From the NCBI RefSeq assembly GCF_046105845.1, contig NZ_CP151004.1: 64,000 bases of DNA; one strand, 5' to 3'. Below, piece by piece: positions 6,628-23,776 of this stretch. The stretch's first letter is position 1. Each line of letters begins with the position of its first letter. The notes beneath the pieces are model-generated. The model saw only the letters and a program-made list of their open reading frames with translations. It made no database searches and was not told the DNA's origin. This stretch comes from Escherichia coli. Its GTDB lineage: Bacteria; Pseudomonadota; Gammaproteobacteria; Enterobacterales; Enterobacteriaceae. A program made the position numbers and the translations under genes.

Positions 6628-9153
6628 ATGCCTTTACGACGGTTCTCCCCAGGACTGAAAGCCCAGTTTGCCTTCGGCATGGTCTTTTTGTTCGTTCAGC
6701 CCGATGCCAGCGCTGCTGACATAAGTGCGCAGCAAATAGGTGGGGTGATTATTCCGCAGGCCTTCAGTCAGGCGCTTCAGGACGGCATGAGCGTCCCGCT
6801 CTATATTCATCTCGCCGGTAGCCAGGGTCGCCAGGACGATCAGCGAATCGGCAGCGCTTTTATCTGGCTGGATGATGGACAGCTACGCATCCGGAAAATA
6901 CAGCTTGAAGAGAGTGAAGATAACGCCAGTGTCAGCGAACAAACTCGACAACAGCTGATGGCTCTGGCGAACGCCCCGTTCAATGAGGCCCTTACCATCA
7001 CACTGACTGACAACGCGCAGCTGGATCTCAGCTTGCGCCAACTGCTGCTGCAGCTGGTGGTCAAGCGCGAAGCGCTTGGCACCGTACTACGCTCACGTAG
7101 CGAAGACATCGGGCAGTCCAGTGTTAACACCCTCAGCAGTAATCTGAGCTATAACTTCGGCATCTATAACAACCAGTTGCGTAACGGCGGGAGCAACACC
7201 TCCAGCTATCTGTCGCTGAATAACGTTACTGCGCTGCGCGAACATCACGTGGTGCTCGACGGCTCACTGTACGGGATTGGTAGCGGTCAACAGGACAGTG
7301 AATTATATAAAGCGATGTATGAACGCGATTTTGCCGGTCACCGATTTGCCGGTGGAATGCTCGACACCTGGAACTTGCAGTCCTTAGGGCCGATGACCGC
7401 CATTTCAGCAGGGAAGATTTACGGCCTTTCCTGGGGAAACCAGGCCAGCTCCACCATCTTCGACAGCAGCCAGTCGGCCACGCCAGTGATCGCCTTTTTA
7501 CCGGCGGCGGGCGAAGTACATCTCACCCGTGATGGCAGGCTACTAAGCGTTCAGAACTTCACCATGGGCAATCATGAAGTGGATACCCGGGGTCTACCGT
7601 ACGGTATTTACGATGTGGAAGTTGAGGTCATCGTTAACGGTCGCGTGATCAGCAAACGCACTCAACGGGTCAATAAGCTGTTTAGCCGGGGGCGCGGCGT
7701 CGGTGCACCACTGGCGTGGCAGATATGGGGCGGTAGCTTTCATATGGATCGCTGGTCGGAAAACGGGAAAAAGACGCGACCAGCCAAAGAGAGTTGGCTG
7801 GCAGGTGCCTCGACCTCCGGCTCACTGAGTACGCTTAGCTGGGCGGCAACGGGATATGGATACGATAATCAGGCCGTGGGTGAAACCCGTCTGACGCTGC
7901 CGCTTGGGGGGGCGATCAACGTTAACCTGCAAAATATGCTGGCCAGTGACAGCTCATGGAGCAGCATCGGCAGCATCAGCGCCACTCTACCGGGAGGCTT
8001 TAGTTCGCTGTGGGTTAATCAGGAAAAAACCCGCATTGGCAATCAATTGCGACGTAGCGATGCCGACAACCGTGCTATCGGCGGCACACTCAACCTGAAC
8101 TCACTGTGGTCGAAGCTGGGTACGTTCAGCATCAGCTACAATGATGACCGCCGCTACAACAGCCATTATTACACGGCAGATTACTATCAAAGTGTCTACA
8201 GCGGTACCTTTGGTTCGCTTGGCCTGCGGGCCGGTATTCAGCGCTATAACAACGGCGACAGCAGCGCCAATACAGGGAAATATATCGCTCTCGATCTCTC
8301 GCTACCACTGGGCAACTGGTTTAGCGCAGGGATGACCCATCAAAACGGCTACACCATGGCAAACCTGTCAGCACGCAAACAGTTTGATGAAGGAACCATT
8401 CGCACTGTTGGTGCCAATCTGTCACGAGCCATCTCCGGCGATACCGGTGATGACAAAACCCTCAGCGGTGGGGCGTATGCACAGTTCGACGCTCGTTACG
8501 CCAGCGGAACGCTGAACGTCAATAGCGCGGCGGACGGCTACATCAATACCAACTTGACCGCCAATGGCAGCGTCGGCTGGCAGGGTAAAAACATCGCTGC
8601 CAGCGGGCGGACTGATGGCAACGCTGGGGTGATATTCAACACCGGGCTGGAGGACGACGGTCAGATCAGCGCCAAAATCAACGGGCGGATTTTCCCGCTT
8701 AACGGCAAGCGTAACTATCTCCCGCTCTCTCCCTATGGAAGATATGAGGTGGAGTTACAGAACAGCAAAAACTCACTCGACAGCTACGATATCGTCAGCG
8801 GCCGCAAAAGCCATCTGACTCTCTATCCAGGCAATGTCGCTGTCATTGAGCCAGAGGTGAAGCAGATGGTTACCGTCTCCGGTCGTATCCGTGCGGAAGA
8901 CGGCACACTGCTGGCTAACGCACGGATTAACAACCATATCGACCGAACCCGAACCGATGAAAACGGCGAGTTTGTCATGGATGTGGACAAGAAATACCCC
9001 ACTATCGATTTTCGCTACAGTGGCAATAAAACCTGCGAAGTGGCACTGGAACTCAACCAGGCGCGCGGTGCCGTCTGGGTCGGTGATGTGGTCTGCAGCG
9101 GCCTCTCATCGTGGGCGGCGGTGACGCAGACAGGAGAAGAGAATGAGAGTTAA
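6628..9153 (+). CDS. ecpC: ECP outer-membrane usher
   Basis: 841-aa ORF with signal peptide, usher-like size and composition, operon position. Confidence 0.9.
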
Positions 9154-10786
9154 CCTACTGATAGCGATGATAATCTTTGCGCTAATCTGGCCTGCAACCG
9201 CGCTCAGAGCGGCAGTGAGCAAAACAACCTGGGCGGATGCTCCGGCACGCGAGTTTGTGTTTGTCGAAAACAACTCAGACGACAACTTTTTCGTCACGCC
9301 TGGCGGGGCGCTGGATCCGCGCCTGACCGGTGCCAACCGCTGGACCGGTTTAAAATACAATGGTTCAGGAACCATCTATCAGCAAAGTCTCGGCTACATT
9401 GATAACGGTTACAACACCGGCCTTTATACCAACTGGAAGTTTGATATGTGGCTGGAAAATTCACCAGTTTCATCTCCTTTAACTGGCTTGCGCTGCATCA
9501 ACTGGTACGCCGGGTGTAATATGACCACCAGTCTTATCCTGCCGCAAACCACCGACGCCAGTGGATTTTATGGCGCGACGGTGACCAGCGGCGGCGCGAA
9601 GTGGATGCACGGCATGTTGTCAGACGCGTTTTACCAGTATCTGCAACAAATGCCCGTCGGCAGCAGCTTTACAATGACCATCAATGCCTGCCAGACCTCT
9701 GTGAACTATGACGCCAGCAGCGGCGCACGCTGTAAGGATCAGGCCTCCGGCAACTGGTATGTTCGCAACGTCACCCATACGAAAGCAGCAAATCTACGGT
9801 TGATAAATACCCACTCGCTGGCGGAGGTGTTTATCAACAGCGACGGAGTACCGACTCTGGGCGAAGGGAACGCCGACTGCCGGACGCAAACCATCGGCAG
9901 CCGTTCAGGATTAAGTTGTAAGATGGTTAACTATACCCTGCAAACAAACGGACTCAGCAACACCTCAATCCATATCTTCCCGGCGATCGCCAACTCGTCG
10001 TTAGCCTCGGCCGTCGGGGCGTACGATATGCAGTTCAGTCTGAATGGCAGTTCATGGAAACCGGTGAGCAATACTGCCTATTACTACACCTTCAACGAGA
10101 TGAAGAGCGCAGACTCGATCTATGTTTTCTTCTCGAGCAACTTCTTTAAGCAGATGGTGAACCTCGGGATCAGCGATATCAACACCAAAGATCTATTCAA
10201 CTTTCGCTTTCAGAACACCACATCACCGGAGTCTGGCTGGTATGAATTTTCTACCTCCAACACGCTGATTATCAAACCCCGTGATTTCAGCATCAGTATT
10301 ATCTCCGATGAATATACTCAGACACCGTCGCGGGAGGGATATGTTGGCAGCGGCGAGTCGGCACTCGATTTCGGCTATATCGTAACCACCAGCGGTAAAA
10401 CAGCTGCCGACGAAGTGCTGATCAAGGTGACCGGACCCGCGCAGGTGATTGGCGGGCGCTCCTATTGTGTCTTCAGCTCCGATGATGGTAAGGCGAAAGT
10501 ACCGTTCCCGGCGACGCTTTCCTTTATTACCCGCAGCGGAGCTACAAAAACCTACGATGCCGGGTGCGATGATAGCTGGCGGGATATGACCGATGCGCTG
10601 TGGCTGACCACACCGTGGACTGATATCTCTGGCGAAGTGGGGCAGATGGATAAGACCACAGTCAAATTTTCGATTCCAATGGATAACGCCATTTCGCTGC
10701 GTACGGTAGATGATAACGGCTGGTTTGGCGAAGTCAGCGCTTCAGGAGAGATTCATGTTCAGGCGACGTGGCGTAACATTAACTAA
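9143..10786 (+). CDS. ecpD: ECP tip adhesin/polymerised subunit
   Basis: 547 aa, signal peptide, 11-bp overlap with the ecpC stop; operon position. Confidence 0.88.
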
Positions 10787-12970: not shown

Positions 12971-13376
12971 ATCTACCCTGCTTGTACCATTATGTTATAC
13001 ACCTCTTCAGGAGTATTCATAAAACAAGACAAATGTAAAGAACTGTATTGTTTTGTATAACAAAATAGTTTCCTAATCGCCAATGAATATAAGCACCATC
13101 ATTTCTCCCTATTTTTATGTTAGAAGTGACAAAGATTTGTAGGGTGATGCAGAGCTGACAATCACAGGTTTCCTTATCGGTTTTTGCATCGCACAACTAA
13201 AGCAATAAACGAGCTCCCGTCATCGGCGAATATGAATTAATTAGCCGGGCTCATAGCTGCATTCGCGTTTTAAGAATAATCCTCCTGCTCTCACCGACTA
13301 TGCTTAACATTTAAAAAAGCATCAGCACTCTCGCAACGCTCTCTTATTTTCCCCTTTAGAATACCGGAGGCCTGGT

Positions 13377-14066
13377 ATGAGCAACCAAGGCGAATACCCC
13401 GAAGATAATCGGGTTGGGAAGCACGAGCCGCACGATTTTAGTTTGACCCGTCGCGATCTGATTAAAGTCAGCGCCGCAACGGCGGCGACCGCCGTGGTTT
13501 ATCCTCATTCTACGCTTGCAGCAAGCGTTCCGGCAGCTACACCCGCGCCCGAGATAATGCCCCTGACACTTAAGGTGAACGGCAAAACCGAGCAGTTGGA
13601 CGTTGATACCCGAACCACGCTACTGGACGCTTTGCGTGAAAATCTGCATCTGATCGGTACCAAGAAAGGTTGCGATCACGGGCAGTGCGGAGCCTGTACC
13701 GTGCTGGTCAATGGTCGCAGGCTTAATGCCTGCCTGACGCTTGCAGTCATGCATCAGGGGGCCGAGATCACCACCATTGAAGGCCTGGGTTCACCAGAGA
13801 ATCTTCACCCCATGCAGGCGGCCTTTATCAAGCATGATGGCTTCCAGTGCGGCTACTGCACCTCCGGGCAAATTTGCTCATCAGTAGCGGTGCTAAAAGA
13901 GATTCAGGACGGCATTCCCAGTCACGTCACGGTCGATTTGGTTTCCCCTCCAGAAAGAACTGCCGATGAGATCCGTGAACGTATGAGCGGCAACATCTGT
14001 CGCTGTGGTGCATACGCTAACATCCTTGCCGCCATTGAAGATGCTGCGGGGGAGATAAAATCATGA
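13377..14066 (+). CDS. paoA: periplasmic aldehyde oxidoreductase, [2Fe-2S] subunit with Tat signal
   Basis: 229 aa; twin-arginine motif TRRDLIK; ferredoxin-type cysteine clusters ([24 protein letters not shown]). Confidence 0.9.
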
Positions 14067-15019
14067 AGGCGTTTACCTATGAACGAGTGAACACCCCGGC
14101 CGAGGCGGCACTTAGCGCTCAGCGCGTACCCGGCGCAAAATTTATCGCTGGCGGGACCAATCTGCTGGACCTGATGAAGCTGGAAATTGAAACGCCCACC
14201 CACCTTATCGATGTGAACGGCCTCGGGCTCGATAAGATTGAAGTGACCGACGCGGGTGGGCTGCGCATCGGCGCACTGGTACGGAACACCGACCTGGCGG
14301 CTCACGAGCGCGTGCGTCGTGATTACGCGGTACTCTCCCGCGCCCTGCTCGCTGGCGCGTCTGGTCAGTTACGTAATCAGGCAACCACCGCAGGTAATCT
14401 GCTCCAGCGCACGCGCTGCCCCTATTTTTACGACACCAATCAGCCCTGCAATAAGCGCCTGCCCGGGAGCGGCTGCGCGGCACTTGAAGGCTTTAGCCGT
14501 CAGCACGCGGTGGTAGGCGTAAGCGAAGCCTGCATTGCCACCCATCCGAGCGATATGGCGGTCGCAATGCGGTTGCTGGATGCGGTAGTGGAAACCATCA
14601 CGCCGGAGGGAAAGACTCGCAGTATCACACTGGCTGATTTTTATCACCCACCGGGGAAAACGCCGCACATTGAAACCGCCCTGCTTCCCGGTGAGCTTAT
14701 CGTTGCGGTGACGTTACCTCCGCCGCTCGGCGGAAAACATATCTACCGCAAGGTGCGCGATCGCGCCTCCTACGCCTTTGCTCTGGTGTCGGTCGCGGCG
14801 ATTATCCAGCCAGACGGCAGCGGGCGCGTCGCACTGGGCGGAGTAGCTCATAAGCCCTGGCGCATTGAGGCTGCGGATGCTCAGCTATCCCAGGGGGCGC
14901 AGGCCGTGTATGACGCGCTGTTCGCCAGCGCCCATCCCACCGCTGAAAACACCTTTAAACTCCTGTTGGCGAAGCGAACGCTTGCCTCCGTACTGGCTGA
15001 AGCGAGGGCACAGGCATGA
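14063..15019 (+). CDS. paoB: aldehyde oxidoreductase FAD-binding subunit
   Basis: 318 aa; start overlaps the paoA stop (ATGA coupling); CO-dehydrogenase flavoprotein-like. Confidence 0.9.
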
Positions 15020-17214
15020 AATTTGATAAACCCGCAGGGGAAAACCCGATCGATCAGCTGAAGGTTGTCGGTCGTCCCCATGACCGCATCGACGGACCGC
15101 TGAAAACTACTGGCACGGCACGCTACGCCTACGAATGGTATGAAGAAGCTCCCAACGCCGCCTATGGTTATATCGTCGGTTCCGCCATTGCCAAAGGATC
15201 CCTCACCGCCCTCGATACGGACGCCGCGCAAAAAGCGCCGGGCGTACTGGCTGTCATTACCGCCAGTAACGCCGGGGCACTCGGCAAAGGCGACAAAAAC
15301 ACCGCCAGGCTGTTAGGCGGCCCCACTATTGAGCACTATCATCAGGCCATTGCGCTGGTAGTGGCTGAGACCTTCGAACAGGCGCGAGCGGCGGCCTCGC
15401 TGGTGCAGGCGCACTATCGCCGTAATAAAGGAGCTTACTCCCTGGCGGACGAGAAACAGGCCGTCAGTCAGCCGCCGGAAGACACGCCCGATAAAAATGT
15501 TGGTGACTTTGACGGGGCTTTCACCTCCGCTGCGGTGAAGATTGATGCTACCTACACGACCCCGGACCAGAGCCATATGGCGATGGAGCCGCATGCCTCG
15601 ATGGCCGTCTGGGATGGAAATAAGCTTACTCTCTGGACCTCAAATCAGATGATTGACTGGTGCCGCACCGATCTGGCAAAAACGCTGAAAGTGCCCGTGG
15701 AGAATGTGCGTATTATCTCCCCGTATATCGGCGGAGGGTTTGGCGGCAAGCTGTTCCTGAGAAGCGATGCGCTGCTGGCGGCCCTCGCCGCCCGTGCGGT
15801 GAAACGTCCGGTTAAAGTGATGCTCCCCCGCCCCACTATTCCCAATAACACCACGCACCGCCCCGCCACCCTTCAGCACTTGCGTATCGGTACTGACCAG
15901 AGCGGGAAAATCACCGCTATCTCACATGAAAGCTGGTCCGGAAACCTGCCCGGCGGCACGCCGGAAACGGCGGTACAGCAAAGCGAATTACTCTACGCCG
16001 GAGTGAGTCGTCATACCGGCCTGCGGCTCGCCACGCTTGATTTGCCGGAAGGGAACGCCATGCGTGCGCCCGGCGAAGCCCCCGGTCTGATGGCGCTCGA
16101 AATCGCGATCGATGAACTGGCGGAAAAAGCGGGCATCGATCCCGTCGAGTTTCGCATCCTGAATGACACTCAGGTTGACCCCGCCGACCCGACGCGCCGC
16201 TTCTCTCGCCGTCAGCTTATCGAGTGCTTGCGCACCGGAGCGGATAAATTTGGCTGGAAGCAGCGCAACGCCACACCCGGACAGGTGCGCGACGGGGAGT
16301 GGCTAGTCGGCCACGGCGTCGCAGCGGGCTTTCGCAATAATCTGCTGGAAAAATCGGGTGCGCGGGTTCATCTCGAACAAAACGGCACCGTTACCGTGGA
16401 AACGGACATGACCGATATTGGCACTGGCAGCTACACCATTCTGGCCCAGACGGCAGCGGAAATGCTTGGCGTACCGCTGGAGCAGGTTGCGGTTCACCTC
16501 GGCGATTCCAGTTTCCCGGTTTCTGCGGGGTCTGGTGGACAATGGGGCGCGAATACCTCCACCTCCGGCGTTTACGCCGCCTGTGTGAAGCTTCGCGAAA
16601 TGATTGCCTCGGCAGTCGGGTTTGATCCTGAGCAGTCGCAGTTTGCCGACGGCAAGATTACCAACGGTACCCGAAGCGCCATGCTACATGAGGCCACCGC
16701 AGGCGGCAGACTGACAGCGGAAGAAAGCATTGAATTCGGAACACTGAGCAAGGAGTACCAGCAGTCGACCTTTGCCGGGCATTTTGTGGAGGTCGGCGTG
16801 CATAGCGCGACGGGAGAAGTTCGGGTCCGGCGTATGCTCGCTGTGTGTGCTGCAGGACGCATCCTGAATCCGAAAACTGCACGCAGCCAGGTCATTGGCG
16901 CAATGACTATGGGCATGGGCGCGGCACTGATGGAGGAGCTGGCGGTGGATAACCGTTTGGGCTACTTCGTTAATCACGATATGGCGGGGTATGAGGTTCC
17001 GGTCCATGCGGATATCCCAAAACAGGAGGTGATTTTCCTGGATGATACCGACCCCATATCCTCCCCGATGAAGGCCAAAGGTGTCGGTGAGCTGGGCCTG
17101 TGCGGCGTGAGCGCGGCTATCGCCAACGCGGTGTATAACGCCACCGGTATTCGGGTACGGGATTATCCCATCACTCTGGATAAGCTGCTCGATAAGCTGC
17201 CGGATGTGGTTTAA
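15016..17214 (+). CDS. paoC: aldehyde oxidoreductase molybdopterin-binding catalytic subunit
   Basis: 732 aa; xanthine-dehydrogenase-family large subunit; start overlaps the paoB stop. Confidence 0.9.
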
Positions 17215-17223
17215 GGAGGAACA

Positions 17224-18180
17224 ATGTCATACCCACTTTTTGACAAAGACGAGCACTGGCATAAGCCAGAGCAGGCGTTTCTCACCGATGACCACCAGGC
17301 CATTCTGCGCTTCGCCGTAGAGGCGCTAATGTCCGGTAAAGGAGCGGTGCTGGTGACGCTGGTGGAAATACGCGGCGGCGCGGCGCGCCCGCTCGGGGCG
17401 CAGATGGTGGTGCGCGAAGATGGCCGTTACTGCGGTTTTGTCTCTGGCGGCTGCGTGGAGGCCGCTGCCGCTTTTGAAGCGCTGGAGGTGATGGGCTCAG
17501 GCCGCGATCGCGAAGTTCGCTATGGCGAAGGTTCACCGTGGTTTGACATCGTTCTGCCCTGCGGCGGTGGGATCACGCTGACGCTCCATAAACTACGCTC
17601 GGCACAGCCTCTGCTCGCCGTGCTGAACCGCCTGGAACAGAGAAAACCGGCGGGTCTGCGCTACGATCCGCAAGCTCAATCGCTGGTGTGCCTGCCCACG
17701 CAAACCCGGACGGGCTGGAATCTCAATGGCTTTGAGGTGGGGTTCAGGCCATGCGTCAGGCTGATGATTTACGGACGTTCTCTTGAGGCGCAGGCAACCG
17801 CGAGTCTTGCAGCAGCCACAGGCTATGACAGCCATATCTTCGATCTTTTTCCGGCCTCAGCCAGCGCTCAGATCGATACCGATACGGCGGTCATTTTGCT
17901 GTGCCATGATCTCAACCGGGAGCTGCCAGTGTTGCAGGCCGCGCGAGAAGCAAAACCCTTTTATCTCGGCGCATTGGGCAGCTATCGAACCCACACGTTA
18001 CGTCTGCAAAAGCTCCACGAGCTGGGATGGTCCAGGGAGGAAACAACGCAAATCCGGGCACCCGTCGGGATATTCCCCAAAGCCCGGGATGCGCATACTC
18101 TGGCACTCTCCGTGCTGGCAGAAGTCGCCTCTGTACGTCTCCATCAGGAGGAGGATTCATGCCTGCCCCCGTCGTCCTGA
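17224..18180 (+). CDS. paoD: molybdenum cofactor insertion chaperone (XdhC family)
   Basis: 318 aa immediately after paoC; XdhC/CoxI-like. Confidence 0.85.
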   Translation: MSYPLFDKDEHWHKPEQAFLTDDHQAILRFAVEALMSGKGAVLVTLVEIRGGAARPLGAQMVVREDGRYCGFVSGGCVEAAAAFEALEVMGSGRDREVRYGEGSPWFDIVLPCGGGITLTLHKLRSAQPLLAVLNRLEQRKPAGLRYDPQAQSLVCLPTQTRTGWNLNGFEVGFRPCVRLMIYGRSLEAQATASLAAATGYDSHIFDLFPASASAQIDTDTAVILLCHDLNRELPVLQAAREAKPFYLGALGSYRTHTLRLQKLHELGWSREETTQIRAPVGIFPKARDAHTLALSVLAEVASVRLHQEEDSCLPPSS

Positions 18181-18245
18181 TCCTTGCGGCCGGGCGTGGA
18201 GAGCGCTTTCTCGCCTCCGGGGGAAATACCCATAAATTAAGAGAA
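18159..18245 (+). pseudogene. 5' stub of a MobA/MocA-like molybdenum-cofactor nucleotidyltransferase gene
   Basis: RBS AGGAGGAGG then ATG at 18159 overlapping the paoD stop. First ~27 aa (MPAPVVLILAAGRGERFLASGGNTHKL) fit the N-terminal NTP-transferase motif; the frame then runs into the convergent MFS gene with no further family signal. 3' boundary approximate. Confidence 0.4.
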
Positions 18246-18359
18246 AAATCTGCAGTAGTCGTTTTAGAAAATCACCTAAATCGTTTAAAAGAGCGCCCAA
18301 CCCATAGTGGGCGCTCATCGCCTTGTGTGACTTATTCAGCAACGCGCACCCTCGCCGGA

Positions 18360-19553
18360 CTAAAGCGCACCGGCCTTCTGGCGTGCGGTAACAAAGGTCA
18401 GTACGCCAGCGCAAAGGAGCAGCACGCTACTCATAGCAAACGTGCTCTGCCAGCCAAGGCGGTCAAATACGATGCCTCCTGCTGTTGATCCAAGGGCGAT
18501 GGCGAGCTGAATCACCGCGACCATGAGCCCGCCTCCGGCTTCGGCGTTGTCAGGCAACGTACGCGCAATCCATGTCCACCATCCGGTTGGCGCGGCGGTG
18601 GCCAGCATGCCCCAGAGTCCTAACAGCAGCGAGACCGTCCAGACGTGATGCCCGGTCAGCATCAGACCGATAGCAATGACGGCCATCAGTCCGGGTATGG
18701 CCATCAGCGTGGGGTAGAATTTTCTGTTGAGAAATGCCGAAACAACCAGCGTGCCAATAAAACCGGCCACGCCGATAATCAGCAAAATCAACGACAAGCC
18801 TAAGGAATTAACCCGTGTCACCGACTCCAGAAACGGGCGCACATAGGTGAATAGTGCAAACTGCCCCATGAAAAACAGGCAGCAGGCTATCATGCCGACC
18901 ACAACCATGCGGCGGCTAAATAAGCGGAATACCGCGCCACATGAAGTGTGGCTTTTATTCGCATCCATGCTTGGCAGGCTGATGCACTGCCAGATAAAGG
19001 CGACAACCGCGATGGGCACCAGGCACAAGAAAGCGCCTCGCCATCCGACCGTAGCCCCCAGATAGCTTCCCAGCGGTGCGGCCACGACCGTCGCCAGCGC
19101 ATTACCGGCGTTGAAAATTGCCAGCGCACGCGTGACCTGATGCTGCGGCACCAGACGAATCGCCGTTGCCGCTGACATCGACCAGAATCCGCCAATAGCC
19201 ACACCAATCATCGCACGACCGACCATATACATCAGATAACTGGAAGCCAGCGCAATAATAAGCCCCGATACGGCCATCAGAACCGTCATCCCCAGCAGCA
19301 GGAACTTACGATTCATCTTTCCAGCTAGCGTTGAAAGCGTCAGGCTGGTCAGAACCGCCAGCGCGCCGGAGATAGCAATCCCCTGCCCTGCCAGCCCCTC
19401 CGTCACGCCTAAATCGCGGGTAATCGGCGTGAGCAGGCTGACGGGCATAAATTCAGAAGCAATCAGCACAAACACGCACAGGGTCATGGCAAAAATACCG
19501 CCCCAGTATGCGCGCTGATGATGAGGTGATAGTGTTTGGCTTAGTGTCGACAT
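18360..19553 (-). CDS. MFS transporter (12-TM, sugar/drug efflux-like)
   Basis: 397 aa, highly hydrophobic with repeated TM helices; hairpin GAGCGCCCA...TGGGCGCTC lies just 3' of it at about 18290-18316. Confidence 0.8.
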   Translation of the reverse strand: MSTLSQTLSPHHQRAYWGGIFAMTLCVFVLIASEFMPVSLLTPITRDLGVTEGLAGQGIAISGALAVLTSLTLSTLAGKMNRKFLLLGMTVLMAVSGLIIALASSYLMYMVGRAMIGVAIGGFWSMSAATAIRLVPQHQVTRALAIFNAGNALATVVAAPLGSYLGATVGWRGAFLCLVPIAVVAFIWQCISLPSMDANKSHTSCGAVFRLFSRRMVVVGMIACCLFFMGQFALFTYVRPFLESVTRVNSLGLSLILLIIGVAGFIGTLVVSAFLNRKFYPTLMAIPGLMAVIAIGLMLTGHHVWTVSLLLGLWGMLATAAPTGWWTWIARTLPDNAEAGGGLMVAVIQLAIALGSTAGGIVFDRLGWQSTFAMSSVLLLCAGVLTFVTARQKAGAL

Positions 19554-19628
19554 AGTGAAATTTCACAAAGATCAGGATAAAAGCCACCAGCCTATGGCCG
19601 GTGGCTTTGCATCAATTCAGGAGAGGTT

Positions 19629-20786
19629 TTATTTCAGTTTGGTCTGGAAAAATTGTTCGAACTTCGCGAAAGGTATTTTTCCGGCCACGTTATCGTACAG
19701 GTCCACGTGATTTGCCCCTGGTACCACCACCAACTCTTTGTCTTTACTGCCAACCGCCTTGTAAGCATCTTCAGCAAAATAGCGTGAATGTGCTTTCTCA
19801 CCGGTCACAATCAGCGTCGGAATGGTGATTTCACTGGCGTAGCTCAACAGCGGCATATTCATAAATGACAGCGGCATCGTTGCCGTCCACGCCCCGGTAG
19901 AGTTAACGGAACGTTCGTGGAAGCCGCGCGGCATGCGATAGTAGTCAAAGAACTCTTTCAGTACCGGATGAGGATTTGCCGGCAGCGTTTCTGGCAGAAT
20001 GCGCTCGCCAGCACTGACCTTGCCGTTGCTATCGACATTAATATCATGACCACCGTGAGCGAACGTTCCGCTCTGCGCATCCTGCCAGCGCTGTTCATTC
20101 AGATATTGCAGAACGGCACGACGGTCGGCGGTAGAATAACGGTCTTTGCCATCCCCCACACCATGACCCATCGCCCGGCTCATGTCATACATCACGCTGG
20201 TAGCTACCGCTTTAACGCGGGTATCCATCGCCACGTCGTTCAGCGCCATGCCGCCCCAGCCACAAATACCGAGCAGCCCGATACGGTTGCGATCTACCTC
20301 TTTTTGCAGCCCTAAGAAATCCACCGCCGCGCTGAAATCTTCAGTGTTGATATCCGGTGAGGCGACGTTTCGCGGATAGCCGCCGCTTTCCCCGGTGTAA
20401 GAAGGATCGAACGCCAGGGTAACAAACCCTCGTTCCGCCAGCGTCTGCGCATACAGGCCGCTGGATTGCTCTTTCACCGCGCCAAATGGCCCACTGACCG
20501 CAATCGCCGCCAGCTTGCGATCGCCACGGTCTTTAGGCAGGTAAAGATCGCCCACTAAGGTGATGCCATATCGGTTCGGGAACGAGACTTTACGGTGATC
20601 GACTTTCTGGCTCTCGGCGAACGTTTTATCCCATTTATCTGTCATGGACACAGGGGCATTAGGATTGGTTGAATCAGCATAACTCATTGTCGTGACCCCA
20701 CTTAATGATGCGAAAAGCAGCATGGTCGGCATCGCGGTTTTTAGCGTTCGGGTGAAGGCTTTCATAAAAATCCCCATAAAAAACAA
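19629..20786 (-). CDS. secreted alpha/beta-fold hydrolase (dienelactone-hydrolase-like)
   Basis: 385 aa; signal peptide (MKAFTRTLKTAMPTMLLFASLSGVTTMSYA, so the true start may be the internal Met); paralog of the partial ORF at 1..874. Confidence 0.8.
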   Translation of the reverse strand: MFFMGIFMKAFTRTLKTAMPTMLLFASLSGVTTMSYADSTNPNAPVSMTDKWDKTFAESQKVDHRKVSFPNRYGITLVGDLYLPKDRGDRKLAAIAVSGPFGAVKEQSSGLYAQTLAERGFVTLAFDPSYTGESGGYPRNVASPDINTEDFSAAVDFLGLQKEVDRNRIGLLGICGWGGMALNDVAMDTRVKAVATSVMYDMSRAMGHGVGDGKDRYSTADRRAVLQYLNEQRWQDAQSGTFAHGGHDINVDSNGKVSAGERILPETLPANPHPVLKEFFDYYRMPRGFHERSVNSTGAWTATMPLSFMNMPLLSYASEITIPTLIVTGEKAHSRYFAEDAYKAVGSKDKELVVVPGANHVDLYDNVAGKIPFAKFEQFFQTKLK

Positions 20787-20951
20787 CAGAGAGATACAGG
20801 TTTCCGACGGACAACGCTGCGGTGCTTTACTTTGATGGGGTCATTATAGTGAGCAGAATTAGTGCTGATTAGGGGGCGATTAATGCTAAGATTAATACCA
20901 TATTGTTATAAATTAATGCGGAGATTGCCGGCATGAAGGGGGGATGTTTCA

Positions 20952-21836
20952 ATGGCGAAAAGGGAGAACTACAACGAGCTGTACCTGTTTATGCAGGTGG
21001 TGCGGGAAGGCAGCTTTACCGCAGCGGCTCAGCGGCTGGGTCTTGCTCAGTCAGGAGTCAGCCGTTCTGTTCGCGAGCTTGAAGAAAGGCTCGGCGTCCA
21101 GCTGCTAGTGCGCACCACGCGTAAACTGTCGCTGACACAAGCAGGCGAGCAGCTCTACCAGAAGACGGCATCTGGATTTGAAATGTTAGATCTTGGGCTT
21201 GCCACGCTGGCGCACTATCGAGAGACGCCCTCCGGCACGGTGCGTATCAATGCCAGCCAGCACGCGATTGATAAATGCCTGCTGCCAAAGCTGGCGGTAT
21301 TTAAACAGCGATATCCTGATATCCGGCTTGAACTGATAAATGAGAGCCGGTTCGTCGATATCATCGAGGAAAGATTCGATGCAGGTGTCCGCCTGGGGCC
21401 TGAAGTCGGCCAGGGTATGGTCGCGGTACGCATCACGCCCGATATGGAGATGGCAATTGTGGGGACTCCGGAACATTTTCGTCGCTATGGTTTTCCGCAA
21501 ACCCCGGCGGATTTAAAGGCGCATCCCTGTATCGCCTATCAGTTTGCCGACGGCAGCGTATACCAGTGGGAACTCAATCAGGATGATAAAAAAATCACTC
21601 ATCGCCCTGAAGGGCAATGGGCCTTATCCGACAGCTATATGGAAGCAGAAGCCGCCCGGCTGGGCCTCGGATTGGCCTATGTTCCTGTTGAACTGGTCGC
21701 GGATGATTTAGAACACGGTAAGCTTATCAGGGTGTTGCAGCGTTACAGCCTGCGAATGGAGGGATTGTTTCTCTATTACCCTCATCGCAACGTCTCCCCC
21801 GCCCTGCGGATGGTCATTGATACATTGAAAATCTGA
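20952..21836 (+). CDS. LysR-family transcriptional regulator
   Basis: 294 aa; N-terminal HTH (FTAAAQRLGLAQSGVSRSVRELEERLGVQLL) typical of LysR; divergent from the hydrolase/MFS pair. Confidence 0.85.
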   Translation: MAKRENYNELYLFMQVVREGSFTAAAQRLGLAQSGVSRSVRELEERLGVQLLVRTTRKLSLTQAGEQLYQKTASGFEMLDLGLATLAHYRETPSGTVRINASQHAIDKCLLPKLAVFKQRYPDIRLELINESRFVDIIEERFDAGVRLGPEVGQGMVAVRITPDMEMAIVGTPEHFRRYGFPQTPADLKAHPCIAYQFADGSVYQWELNQDDKKITHRPEGQWALSDSYMEAEAARLGLGLAYVPVELVADDLEHGKLIRVLQRYSLRMEGLFLYYPHRNVSPALRMVIDTLKI

Positions 21837-22058
21837 ACGTTAATAACGACCGACTCTTCACTGTGCAACATTGTGTCAGGTAGTCCCTCTGCGTTCAATT
21901 CCAGGGTCTGCTTTGAGCGAGAAAGAGGGGACTATCCAGCAATGGAGATCACCCAAAAGAAAAAACCACCTGGCTCCCTCGACAACCTTCATCCAGGCAT
22001 TTAGCCTCAATCAACATTTTTATATCTGTCAGGTTACTTCATGATGAAAACTGATCAT

Positions 22059-22305
22059 TATCGTTGTTTTTGTTGCAATAGTAGAATACGCGTATTTATT
22101 CCTCCATCTCTATTAATAACGGCAATAAACTGTTCACTTCACTGATATTTAAAATATGTATCCTTTTCAAGCTGTTCAGCGGCGTAAGAAAAAGTATTAA
22201 TTATGAATTCGACGATTTAACCATATCTGTCTGATTGGTAATCATCCGTGATTAATGTTGGTCTATTGATTACGCCAGCATTAACCGCTTAGGGATGTAT
22301 TCTTC
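22059..22305. repeat. degenerate second copy of the ykgR/ykgO flanks with ykgM and most of ykgO missing
   Basis: 22059..22153 aligns by eye with 2775..2873 (ykgR 3' half and downstream) and 22156..22305 with 3558..3705 (ykgO 3' end and downstream), with scattered substitutions; the ~680 bp carrying ykgM/ykgO is absent between the two blocks. Confidence 0.7.
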
Positions 22306-22607
22306 CTGTTGATATCCCCCCCTCGAAAAAGAGAGAAAATAAAACTGTGTCCAATATTACTCTACCACTCCAGACCGAAGCATCGGTGGGATTAGCAGGA
22401 CGACTGGTACAGAAGGATGGTATAGCGTCATTTGTCGGGCATTCCATTGCCATAATAATGACAATTTTGAATCAATAGACATGCTTCTTGATCATGTCTT
22501 AAAAATTAGACCATGAGCCTTACGAAGCATCATTTTTACTGACTGGTATTAACTTTGCTATCATATAAACTCTGTTCTTAAAAACGCGCCCAGAATTTAT
22601 ATGATTT

Positions 22608-22748
22608 TCATTGTTTTTCTGCCTGTAAAGAAATTTCTTTTTCAGTGCTGTCGATGGTTGAACCGACGGCAGTAATCGTTTTGGCGACGCTACTGAAGGA
22701 TATTAAAGACAGTGTAACCACAACAATTAAAGAATAGATAATATTCAT
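22608..22748 (-). CDS. small hydrophobic/secreted protein (46 aa)
   Basis: ATG at 22748 preceded by AGGAGA RBS; MNIIYSLIVVVTLSLISFSSVAKTITAVGSTIDSTEKEISLQAEKQ, an N-terminal hydrophobic helix then a polar tail. The ORF track gives a longer version from 22796. Confidence 0.4.
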   Translation of the reverse strand: MNIIYSLIVVVTLSLISFSSVAKTITAVGSTIDSTEKEISLQAEKQ

Positions 22749-22963
22749 GCTAATTCTCCTGACAATTGAGAGGATGAGTTTTATATACAAAGGCATTAAA
22801 TATGAGTCATGTTTACTCCCTGTGAAAATAATCTTACTGTAATTAAACCTTCATCTCCTTCGGAGTGAGCAATGCATAATATAATGCATCTTGCTATTCA
22901 AAACAGTGGATATAAATTTTCCTCGCGACCTATTTAATAAAACGTGAATATAAAAGTTAGTCT

Positions 22964-23515
22964 TCAGTTTGCAGATGCAGTAGGTCTGATGGTAATTTCG
23001 GTTGTATCAACTGTTTCGGGAGATTCAATAATATGCCTTACAGCACGGGCAATATCCGCGGGTTGAAGTGCAACAGAACGGTAGGCGTCCATTGACTTCA
23101 TGGTTTCCACATGGGTAATGGTTGAAGCCAGTTCACTTTCTACAACCCCAGGATTTACGCAGGTCACACGGATTTTCGAGCTTTCCTGCCGTAAGCCATC
23201 CGAAATAGCCCGTACTGCAAATTTTGATGCACAATAGACTGCGCCTGTGGGCACAACAGAAAGGACACCAATAGAACCAAGATTGATTATCTGACCGGAA
23301 CCCTGTGCTTCCATCACCGGAAGTACAGCGCCAATTCCCCAAAGTACGCCTTTGATATTCACGTCAATAGTGAGTTCCCATTCATCTTGTTTTCCTGCTG
23401 CAAGCGGTGAAAGCGGCATAACGCCCGCATTATTGATAAGAACATCAACTCGCCCCCAGCTATCCAGCGCTGCTTGCACGAAATCGGCCATGGACTGCCG
23501 GTCTGTGACATCCAA
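22964..23515 (-). pseudogene. short-chain dehydrogenase/reductase (SDR), N-terminally truncated
   Basis: 183-aa ORF has the SDR core (NNAG, catalytic Y...K in VYCASKFAV) but lacks the N-terminal TGxxxGxG NAD-binding segment; its 5' end abuts the integrase remnant. Confidence 0.7.
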
Positions 23516-23519
23516 CTTG

Positions 23520-23686
23520 CATTTTCAGAAATGGGAGGCTGGGAGTCTATCGAAATGGTTCGTCGATATGCTCACCTCGCGCCTAATCACCTTACCGAAC
23601 ACGCACGGCAAATAGACTCAGTCCTGAACCCATCGGTCCCAAATTTGTCCCAGTCAAAAAATAAGAAAGGTACTAATGATGTGTAA
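23520..23686 (+). pseudogene. tyrosine-recombinase (phage integrase) C-terminal remnant
   Basis: ...[28 protein letters not shown]... matches the conserved C-terminal tyrosine-recombinase block (catalytic Y in RYAHL) and ends 14 bp from the tRNA 3' end; no upstream integrase body. 5' boundary approximate. Confidence 0.6.
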
Positions 23687-23700
23687 CTTATTGATTTAAA

Positions 23701-23776
23701 TGGTGCCGATAATAGGAGTCGAACCTACGACCTTCGCATTACGAATGCGCTGCTCTACCAACTGAGCTATATCGGC
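23701..23776 (-). tRNA. thrW: tRNA-Thr (anticodon CGU)
   Basis: The reverse complement reads GCCGATATAGCTCAGTTGGTAGAGCAGCGCATTCGTAATGCGAAGGTCGTAGGTTCGACTCCTATTATCGGCACCA: cloverleaf, CGT anticodon, CCA end; next to proA as in K-12. Confidence 0.9.

Follow-up and report, generated by a model that had tools for sequence, protein, structure and literature searches.

PaoC binds MCD (PMC2997495), and in the paoABCD operon, whose last gene is described as paoD, the MCD cofactor passes to PaoD from MocA (PMC3909100). Pairs of xdhC and mocA genes are known elsewhere: pucA-pucB in B. subtilis, xdhC-mocA on pAO1 of Arthrobacter nicotinovorans, and a pair in Oligotropha carboxidovorans (PMC2997495). MocA (YgfJ; TIGR03310, PF12804) is the CTP:molybdopterin cytidylyltransferase of E. 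coli; MobA, the GTP:molybdopterin guanylyltransferase (TIGR02665), shares with the gene described here the fold family and the N-terminal glycine-rich signature. Neumann et al. (JBC, 2011) reportedly distinguished a cytosine-type motif, TAAG, in MocA from LAGG in MobA.

We analyzed a 64,000-nucleotide (64-kb) stretch of E. coli DNA, hereafter the window, in which the second member of an xdhC-mocA-like pair is reduced to a stub directly behind paoD. We put the probability of the following reading, taken as a whole, at roughly 90%: the stub is the dead 5′ end of a fifth pao gene, most of which was removed by a deletion of ~7 kb; the stub later drifted and was fused to other coding sequence in K-12, giving yagP; and the unlinked MocA supplies the cofactor cytidylylation.

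Full-length fifth genes behind paoD

The original prediction looked to other Enterobacteriaceae for a full-length gene behind paoD, and it is there: in 26 enterobacterial loci, paoD is followed on the same strand by a gene of 180 to 199 amino acids (aa) that starts inside the 3′ end of paoD and whose product begins with PVV(I/L)ILAAG(R/K)GERFLASG..THKL. Nine Rhizobiales loci also have paoD and the fifth gene, so that both sets repeat the order of the known xdhC-mocA pairs, an XdhC-family chaperone gene and then a MocA homologue. Most other Enterobacteriaceae that have the operon keep the fifth gene intact, in translational overlap with paoD, and the four-gene paoABCD of E. coli derives from an operon of five genes. 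None of the loci that our genome-contig scan returned came from E. coli, E. albertii, E. fergusonii, or a cryptic clade; the only Escherichia-labelled match, Escherichia sp. ESNIH1, carries the intact gene.

The intact protein belongs to the MobA/MocA-like nucleotidyltransferases. Residues 7 to 146 of one orthologue (L005) match PF12804 with an E value of 5e-23, the domain that the orthologues have in common with MocA, and the best NCBIfam matches are MocA/YgfJ (TIGR03310, the best or near-best curated family), the DVU_1551 NTP transferase, and PucB. Source annotations call it either "nucleotidyltransferase family protein" or "CTP:molybdopterin cytidylyltransferase." Two orthologues (L003 and L005) score 83 to 85 bits against TIGR03310, below its equivalog cutoff of 186 bits, so the intact proteins form a separate subfamily and are not MocA equivalogs. 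They reach about 20 bits against TIGR02665, too weak a match for MobA orthologues. Because PaoC binds MCD, and given the family match, the intact protein is probably a cytidylyltransferase; its gene lies next to that of an XdhC-type chaperone for an MCD-containing enzyme, a context that suits the MocA reaction. The AAG of the TAAG motif of MocA also occurs in the LAAG signature of the E. coli stub.

With the last gene of the operon truncated, E. coli's reliance on an unlinked MocA for PaoABC maturation is a derived state as well. It is about as likely as not that the intact genes of other enterics encode a cytidylyltransferase subfamily of their own, separate from MocA and dedicated to working with PaoD, in which case the well-studied MocA-to-PaoD hand-over of E. 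coli would be a derived substitute. An intact fifth gene could also help heterologous production of MCD-containing PaoABC-type enzymes.

The stub in the window

The features of the region are as follows (coordinates in the window, strand, description, and source).

17224-18180, +, paoD, XdhC-family Moco insertion chaperone (ORF list; PGAP annotation of near-identical E. coli loci)
18146-18154, +, AGGAGGAGG, Shine-Dalgarno site of the former fifth gene, inside the coding end of paoD (sequence)
18159-18239, +, first 27 codons, all that is left of a MocA-like (PF12804) nucleotidyltransferase gene, MPAPVVLILAAGRGERFLASGGNTHKL (tblastn, HMM, DNA alignment)
18239/18240, no strand, breakpoint, end of homology to the intact gene (alignments)
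18240-18488, +, nonhomologous read-through tail, codons 28 to 109 plus stop, antisense to the 3′ flank and coding end of the MFS gene (translation; no Pfam or NCBIfam match)
18240-18359, no strand, AT-rich 120-nt spacer from the breakpoint to the MFS stop (sequence comparison)
18291-18316, −, 9-bp GC-rich hairpin followed by UUUUAAA (fold of −20.9 kcal/mol, z = −3.1)
18360-19487, −, gene of an MFS transporter, converging on pao (strain 1190 PGAP annotation, mapped across by coordinate; 82% aa identity to the L096 MFS protein)
19629-20687, −, alpha/beta hydrolase gene (strain 1190 PGAP transfer; 95% aa identity to the L096 hydrolase)
20952-21836, +, LysR-family regulator gene, transcribed away from the hydrolase and MFS genes (ORF list; strain 1190 PGAP transfer)
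23701-23776, thrW

The frame that opens at 18159 has 109 codons and stops at 18486-18488. It had been described as a gene stub at 18159-18360 with a ribosome-binding site and an ATG overlapping the paoD stop. The start, the ribosome-binding site, and the ATG hold; the end at 18360 is arbitrary, since the true remnant is 81 nt long, and what the stub overlaps is the last 22 nt of paoD and not, by its ATG, the stop codon itself. The ATG (18159-18161) lies 19 nt upstream of the paoD stop, TGA at 18178-18180. Among intact orthologues, the overlap is likewise 22 nt (in L094, for example, paoD spans 8063-9022 and the next gene 9001-9555), and those in our alignment also have a related purine-rich site at the Shine-Dalgarno position. 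The stub's LAAGRGERF...GGNTHK fits the nucleotide-binding signature of PF12804, (L/T)A(A/G)GxxxR(M/F)G plus a conserved Lys.

Homology extends over codons 1 to 27 (18159-18239) and then ceases, as had been claimed from the first ~27 residues; beyond 18239, the frame runs opposite the MFS 3′ flank and coding end, again as described. When 26 full-length enterobacterial proteins were searched against the window with tblastn, they matched the stub with 57 to 92% identity (E values of 7e-6 to 7e-11), and the alignments ended at 18239 in all but four weaker, lower-identity cases. A profile HMM of the orthologues, run against the six-frame translation of the window, gave a single significant match (E = 4.6e-10, profile positions 2 to 31). 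At the DNA level, window positions 17381-18239 are 92.4% identical to L096, where the match ends exactly at 18239; 24 of the 27 residues are identical to the intact L096 protein, and across intact genes the stub shows 87 to 92% nucleotide identity in an identical position and frame relative to paoD.

The 109-aa ORF by itself matched nothing in NCBIfam and nothing in Pfam, even at E ≤ 10, so the expected similarity to NTP-transferase profiles appears with an orthologue-specific profile and not with generic ones. The generic profiles are silent because the ORF is too short, which is why we used the orthologue profile; the identification therefore draws on that profile, nucleotide identity, and synteny. 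The generic silence and a match of just 27 residues are what one would expect if this were a spurious ORF with a glycine-rich motif that resembles a transferase by chance. Such a coincidence is wildly improbable given the E value obtained against all six frames of the window and the nucleotide identity in the same position and frame relative to paoD; synteny and nucleotide-level homology already refute it. The original prediction of a MobA/MocA-like nucleotidyltransferase gene of which the 5′ end is left is thus supported by the orthologue profile, the DNA identity, and the synteny.

The complete ~160-residue alpha/beta PF12804 domain was not detected in the E. coli ORF, which corresponds to 27 of the ~184 codons of the intact gene. 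With ~85% of the fold missing, the stub cannot be an enzyme. We found no second MocA-like gene in the 64-kb window with the orthologue HMM in six frames. This is in keeping with the proposal that an unlinked mocA provides the function, as is the transfer of MCD from MocA to PaoD (PMC3909100); in our reading, unlinked MocA carries out the cytidylylation of the PaoABC cofactor in E. coli.

Loss of the 3′ part and the neighboring MFS-hydrolase-LysR module

The stub had been attributed to truncation by insertion of the MFS-hydrolase-LysR module, an explanation that the data do not support. In L096 and L097, two assemblies of apparently the same Salmonella-labelled isolate, an intact 184-aa gene is followed by 6.7 kb of other genes and then by the MFS and hydrolase orthologues, arranged and oriented as in the window. 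L096 matches the window at 17381-18239 (92.4%) and 18372-20654 (82.6%), and the 7.2 kb between these matches in L096 hold the intact gene and six other genes. The block adjoins mobile-element genes (TraI and integrase) in L096/L097, and paoD there is 5′ truncated.

An insertion ought to have left the rest of the fifth gene beyond the inserted block, but the orthologue HMM found no 3′ part of it in any of the six frames of the 64-kb window (next best E = 1.4). Two candidate 3′ remnants, 22293-22475 and 4050-3868 (E = 1.4 each), were also weak and nonsignificant in tblastn, and we regard them as chance matches.

Since no 3′ remnant exists in the window and L096 has an intact gene upstream of the same module, a deletion of ~7.2 kb better explains the E. 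coli state; most likely, ~7 kb was lost by deletion in E. coli, and the gene was not cut by an insertion. In an ancestor of E. coli, such a deletion would have taken codon 28 to the end of the gene together with several downstream genes, so that codon 27 came to abut the 3′ flank of the convergent MFS-hydrolase(-LysR) module, which had lain downstream beforehand. The remnant retains its ribosome-binding site, start codon, and nucleotide-binding signature (LAAGxGxRF...K).

Insertion of the module into an intact fifth gene, splitting or truncating it, is unlikely in our estimation, yet several observations speak for it. The module abuts the breakpoint, the pao-thrW interval varies among relatives as a hot spot of integration, and, among the fetched loci, other relatives of the module adjoin paoD in Frateuria and Pseudoxanthomonas, which suggests that it moves as a unit. 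The 120-nt junction spacer, moreover, has no match outside E. coli. Against these stand the absence of the gene's 3′ part from the whole 64-kb window, the lack of a target duplication or mobile-element end at 18239/18240, and the presence in L096 of the same module in the same orientation, already downstream of an intact gene. Insertion also takes one step more, because it needs an additional deletion of ~470 bp.

For the deletion, the preferred explanation, we sought other relatives in which the MFS module accompanies an intact gene. The P0004, P0005, and P0008 contexts provided none, the downstream DNA being unrelated and variable; the same is true of the DNA downstream of the intact gene in the close relatives L003, L094, L098, and L099. 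The deletion model consequently draws on a single arrangement, that of L096/L097. The spacer (18240-18359) showed no similarity to any non-E. coli locus fetched and could not be aligned to the MFS 3′ flank of L096. These comparisons thus set no right-hand endpoint for the deletion, and the junction could also stem from a replacement of a more complex kind.

Within the spacer, the minus-strand hairpin at 18291-18316 is likely the terminator of the MFS gene, judging from its predicted fold, and probably also forms a 3′ boundary for pao transcripts. A consensus terminator scan of 17900-18600 made no call; it missed the hairpin because the T run is too short.

Decay of the stub in E. coli and origin of yagP

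The stub is present in 3,598 of 5,426 complete E. coli genomes, that is, in all genomes with the paoD 3′ end. The MFS-type junction occurs in 912 complete genomes and the yagP-type junction in 2,679. None of the 5,426 covered ≥80% of a query that took in the whole intact gene; among the matches listed, those adjacent to paoD were confined to the first 87 nt of the intact-gene query. The stub is an ordinary gene remnant, truncated and with no intact copy in complete E. coli genomes.

Since its truncation, the remnant has drifted through frameshifts, motif substitutions, and differing read-through tails. A 1-bp deletion leaves a 26-codon ORF in 2 of 13 sampled alleles, those of O157 strain 140 (O157:H7) and E500002; the substitutions E15K, R16C, A19T, and G21E occur in different E. 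coli strains; and one deep lineage lacks a GAG of the Shine-Dalgarno site. The ORF that begins with the stub is 26, 109, or 136 aa long, with tails that are unrelated between lineages. Tree-wide, we counted four synonymous and four nonsynonymous changes and one frameshift in the stub, a small sample, and its nucleotide conservation is no greater than that of the adjacent noncoding spacer. The stub thus carries no sign of constraint in this small sample, as seen from the frameshift, the signature substitutions, and the lineage-specific tails, and it is presumably nonfunctional.

Two deep E. coli lineages differ in the nonoverlapping part of the stub by four synonymous changes and one nonsynonymous change, a ratio that by itself looks like purifying selection, although the numbers are tiny.

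It is very doubtful that the ORF, 109 aa here and 136 aa as YagP of K-12, encodes a small protein with a function, such as a PaoD-interacting peptide or a regulator. The strong Shine-Dalgarno site and ATG, the occurrence of the stub in every E. coli genome that has the paoD 3′ end, the 4:1 ratio between the two lineages, and the calling of the ORF as a protein in some annotations might be taken that way. The tails, however, have nothing in common (a 109-aa ORF running opposite MFS, the 136-aa chimera with LysR, or 26 aa where the frameshift occurs) and no family match; the signature residues R16 and G21 are substituted; and, at the nucleotide level, the stub is no better conserved than the noncoding spacer beside it. 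The Shine-Dalgarno site lies within the paoD coding sequence, and its retention thus needs no separate explanation. Nor is the short ORF a small gene conserved as such among orthologous loci, given products of 180 to 199 aa in other genera and of 26, 109, or 136 aa in E. coli. There is likewise only a slim chance that the stub is still translated, coupled to paoD, as a 26- to 27-residue peptide that keeps a role, for instance, in contacts with PaoD like those presumably made by the full-length transferase; such a role would explain why four of the five lineage differences are synonymous.

The remnant also accounts for yagP (b0282) of E. coli K-12, which has the same start codon as the stub and whose first 26 codons are those of the stub with R16C. 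Whereas the window retains the MFS-hydrolase-LysR1 block, so that its stub reads into antisense MFS sequence, the K-12 stub continues in frame into a second LysR gene, of which the last 110 residues remain, and the 136-aa product is named YagP. The K-12-type junction falls at 18235/18236, 4 nt to the left of the window breakpoint; a megablast match ending at 18235 had suggested that the two breakpoints were the same, but the outgroup alignment separates them. A 5-bp microhomology, CATAA, is found at the 6.1-kb deletion in K-12. In K-12-type strains, a second, CATAA-mediated deletion of 6.1 kb fused the stub to the LysR fragment and created the pseudogene. Among the papers listed by our literature search on yagP, none described its origin; a MocA-like start joined to a LysR tail by a microhomology deletion supplies an explanation. 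It also explains the stray "LysR-type regulator" labels on the 109-aa ORF. Apart from its bearing on these labels, the history of the operon, and the origin of yagP, the stub is an ordinary decaying gene remnant.

The stub after paoD and its orthologs

Behind paoD, at 18159-18239 (+), a 27-codon stub begins within the following setting:

13377-18180, +, paoABCD (ORF list and annotation of E. coli loci)
18146-18154, +, sequence in Shine-Dalgarno position, AGGAGGAGG, within the last codons of paoD
18159, +, ATG of the stub frame, 4 nt after AGGAGGAGG
18178-18180, +, paoD stop codon, TGA (from the sequence)
18291-18316, hairpin, −20.9 kcal/mol, z = −3.1 (from folding)
18360-19487, −, convergent MFS gene

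The stub frame (translation, MPAPVVLILAAGRGERFLASGGNTHKL) overlaps paoD by 22 nt; after the stub residues, it runs for 82 further codons to a stop at 18486-18488, making a 109-amino-acid (aa) ORF whose tail is antisense to an AT-rich spacer, the hairpin, and the 3' end of the MFS gene. The original prediction described the site, including this antisense tail, accurately apart from two details: the start is well placed behind AGGAGGAGG, but its ATG overlaps the 3' end of paoD and not the stop codon, and the proposed end at 18360 corresponds neither to the frame stop nor to the end of homology at 18239. G+C content of the pao operon (13300-18200) is 55 to 64%, versus 39 to 48% just upstream and 34 to 45% at 21700-23300, which is compatible with horizontal acquisition.

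Pfam and NCBIfam profiles gave no match to the 109-aa ORF; because such generic profiles are blind to it, we examined orthologous loci, scanning PaoD relatives in one genome per species (80 loci). Twenty-six enterobacterial loci have a fifth gene, co-directional, 180 to 199 aa long, and starting within the paoD 3' end, whose products share the N terminus PVV(I/L)ILAAG(R/K)GERFLASG..THKLDALL. The genera include Pluralibacter, Leclercia, Enterobacter, Franconibacter, Silvania, Siccibacter, Citrobacter, Cedecea, Dryocola, Atlantibacter, Kosakonia, and Pseudocitrobacter; the same arrangement occurs in 9 Rhizobiales loci. The intact protein contains PF12804 (MobA-like NTP transferase; residues 7 to 146, E = 5e-23). 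Its top curated families are MocA/YgfJ (TIGR03310), DVU_1551 NTP transferase, and PucB, all with scores under the equivalog cutoff (for MocA, 84 bits versus 186), and in public records it goes by "nucleotidyltransferase family protein" or, on occasion, "CTP:molybdopterin cytidylyltransferase."

In tblastn searches, all 26 enterobacterial proteins match at, or slightly offset from, window 18159-18239 (57 to 92% identity; E values down to 7e-11), and the alignments end at 18239 except for four weaker, lower-identity ones. An ortholog HMM run against six frames of the 64-kb window found the stub as its sole site (E = 4.6e-10, profile positions 2 to 31); the next-best matches had E values of at least 1.4. 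The closest relatives (L003, L094, and L096, the last on a Salmonella-labeled contig) are 90 to 92% identical in nucleotide sequence through the pao genes into the stub, where the match breaks off at 18236-18239. Chance resemblance is excluded by the HMM score, tblastn, and this nucleotide identity. The stub is the orthologous 5' end of the fifth gene, retaining 27 of ~184 codons, and the pao operon ancestrally had five genes. The predicted MobA/MocA-like remnant, with similarity over some 27 N-terminal residues and then lost, is thus borne out through its orthologs, and comparison with other Enterobacteriaceae pao operons supplied the full-length gene.

Truncation and the downstream neighborhood

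The original prediction had the gene cut by an MFS-hydrolase-LysR insertion. In L096/L097 (labeled Salmonella enterica, apparently one isolate), the paoD 3' part and an intact 184-aa gene match window 17381-18239 at 92.4% nucleotide identity, and the stub shares 24 of its 27 residues with the intact protein. Beyond the intact gene lie 6.7 kb with a hydrolase, a two-component system, a cupin, a CMD protein, a flavodoxin, and an abhydrolase, and then, on the opposite strand, orthologs of the E. coli MFS (82% aa identity) and hydrolase (95%), which match window 18372-20654 at 82.6% nucleotide identity. Gene order and orientation equal those of E. coli save for 7.2 kb between the matches. Since a stub cannot regenerate an intact gene, the E. 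coli state is derived, and one deletion in a layout like that of L096 would yield its stub-MFS junction. We give truncation by deletion a probability of about 0.7, for a model drawn from one arrangement in one isolate, beside mobile-element genes. Insertion of the MFS-hydrolase-LysR block, or replacement, is rather unlikely, and the earlier proposal is probably wrong: the ortholog HMM found no 3' fragment of the fifth gene in the 64-kb window, and in L096/L097 the intact gene already lies upstream of the MFS and hydrolase genes, in the same orientation.

In other close relatives, the DNA downstream of the intact gene is variable and unrelated, as expected because the thrW integration site is near (tRNA-Thr, 23701-23776, −); pao-thrW synteny is shared with Enterobacter oligotrophicus. 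The 120-nt spacer at 18240-18359 has no match outside E. coli, so the right-hand endpoint of the putative deletion is undefined. At L096/L097 1-5600, paoD is 5' truncated and preceded by an integrase, umuD/umuC fragments, a UvrD-like helicase, and a TraI_2 relaxase gene; these mobile-gene neighbors place the pao 3' block and intact fifth gene at the edge of an integrative/conjugative element.

After the L096 orthologs, the best relatives of the MFS-hydrolase-LysR triad (18360-21836) among the fetched loci adjoin paoD homologs in Xanthomonadales (L031, L039, and L056; Frateuria defendens and two Pseudoxanthomonas), with aa identities of 62 to 71% (MFS), ~41% (hydrolase), and ~42% (LysR). This recurrent linkage suggests a functional connection to pao, for example, ester uptake and hydrolysis yielding an aldehyde substrate. 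Farther on, colinearity with O157 stops at 23517, within an SDR oxidoreductase gene:

22964-23515, −, SDR oxidoreductase gene, 5' truncated (profile matches begin at about position 55 to 60)
23519-23683, +, 55-codon fragment directly beside thrW

By eye, the fragment looks like a tyrosine recombinase C terminus; NCBIfam gave no match to it. The 22964-23683 stretch is probably a trace left by island integration at thrW.

Distribution in E. coli and the origin of yagP

Window 17800-18700 matches 3,598 of 5,426 complete E. coli genomes at 95 to 100% identity. When 771 nt of L003 (intact gene plus downstream flank) were searched against these genomes by sensitive blastn, none covered 80% of the query; the paoD-adjacent matches listed were each confined to its first 87 nt, and nine records matched only its flavodoxin part, elsewhere in the genome. 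Nearly all stub-bearing genomes have either the window-type junction (stub then MFS; 912 genomes) or the K-12 type (stub then LysR fragment, yagP; 2,679 genomes). E. coli MARGA_4 (L087) carries ISEc52 (IS3 family) in the paoD 3' part, at about window 18078, splitting paoD upstream of the stub.

Similarity of K-12 to the window stops at 18235. O157:H7 strain 140 shows the window-type arrangement and, farther downstream, a second LysR gene of full length (L083 14004-14903); K-12 equals the O157 sequence minus 6.1 kb. The deletion ends, ACC-CATAA-ATT in the stub and AAT-CATAA-GTG in the second LysR gene, share 5 bp of microhomology. The K-12 fusion is in frame: a 136-aa ORF (L002 5360-5770), named YagP in databases, joins 26 stub residues (window 18159-18235) to a LysR substrate-binding C terminus (~110 residues) encoded by DNA absent from the window. 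The yagP pseudogene is thus a MocA-like-stub/LysR chimera formed by the 6.1-kb CATAA deletion, which explains its origin. In the outgroup alignment, the junctions are 4 nt apart (window after TTA, 18239; K-12 after CATAA, 18235); they are two separate events. The 109-aa ORF (window 18159-18485) is deposited as "hypothetical protein" in some E. coli records and as "transcriptional regulator LYSR-type" in others. It lacks LysR sequence, and the LysR name is probably an error carried over from YagP by way of the 26 stub residues that both contain.

Decay of the stub and cofactor supply

We compared the non-overlapping part of the stub among 13 E. coli alleles. A 1-bp deletion (CCC to CC) shortens the ORF to 26 codons in O157 strain 140 and strain E500002; substitutions include E15K, G21E, an A19T polymorphism, and, in K-12, R16C, a change of the signature Arg. 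One deep lineage (E30, SB0258h1, and 98205) has four synonymous changes, and the synonymous:nonsynonymous ratio is 4:1 in one lineage comparison, on five sites only. The two deepest lineages differ at 5 of 59 nt, not below the adjacent noncoding spacer, and read-through tails are unrelated from lineage to lineage. This pattern marks the stub as a decaying remnant.

The stub has no transferase activity, because 27 residues cannot make the ~160-residue alpha/beta domain. PaoC carries the cytosine dinucleotide cofactor MCD, whose insertion needs paoD (PMC2997495), and PaoD reportedly interacts with the unlinked MocA, taking MCD from it (PMC3909100). The ortholog HMM found no further MocA-like gene in the 64-kb window; the prediction that an unlinked mocA supplies the missing function agrees with the literature. 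Both papers place paoD last in the operon; the xdhC-mocA pairs they report come from Bacillus (pucA-pucB), Arthrobacter, and Oligotropha, with none for E. coli (PMC2997495, PMC3909100). We found no mention of the remnant in these two pao papers. As a pseudogene fragment the stub is ordinary, its family and its type of gene pair both being known; the by-products are the five-gene ancestry of pao, an explanation for the origin of yagP, and the apparently wrong LysR-type labels given to the 109-aa ORF in some records.

The fifth gene has decayed independently elsewhere: Rhizobium sp. Root708 retains only a stub after its paoD homolog (L070 5950-6054; profile positions 5 to 41), and in Rhizobium sp. 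Root1203 the gene is reduced to scrambled fragments (L077 6133-6518). Loss of the operon-linked transferase thus seems recurrent. Two Pantoea loci (L022 and L023) and L028 (labeled Enterobacter ludwigii) have the NTP-transferase gene convergent to paoD, not co-directional, and in L022 it is in two pieces; two Erwinia loci (L012 and L019) have a convergent LysR gene after paoD and lack the NTP-transferase gene.
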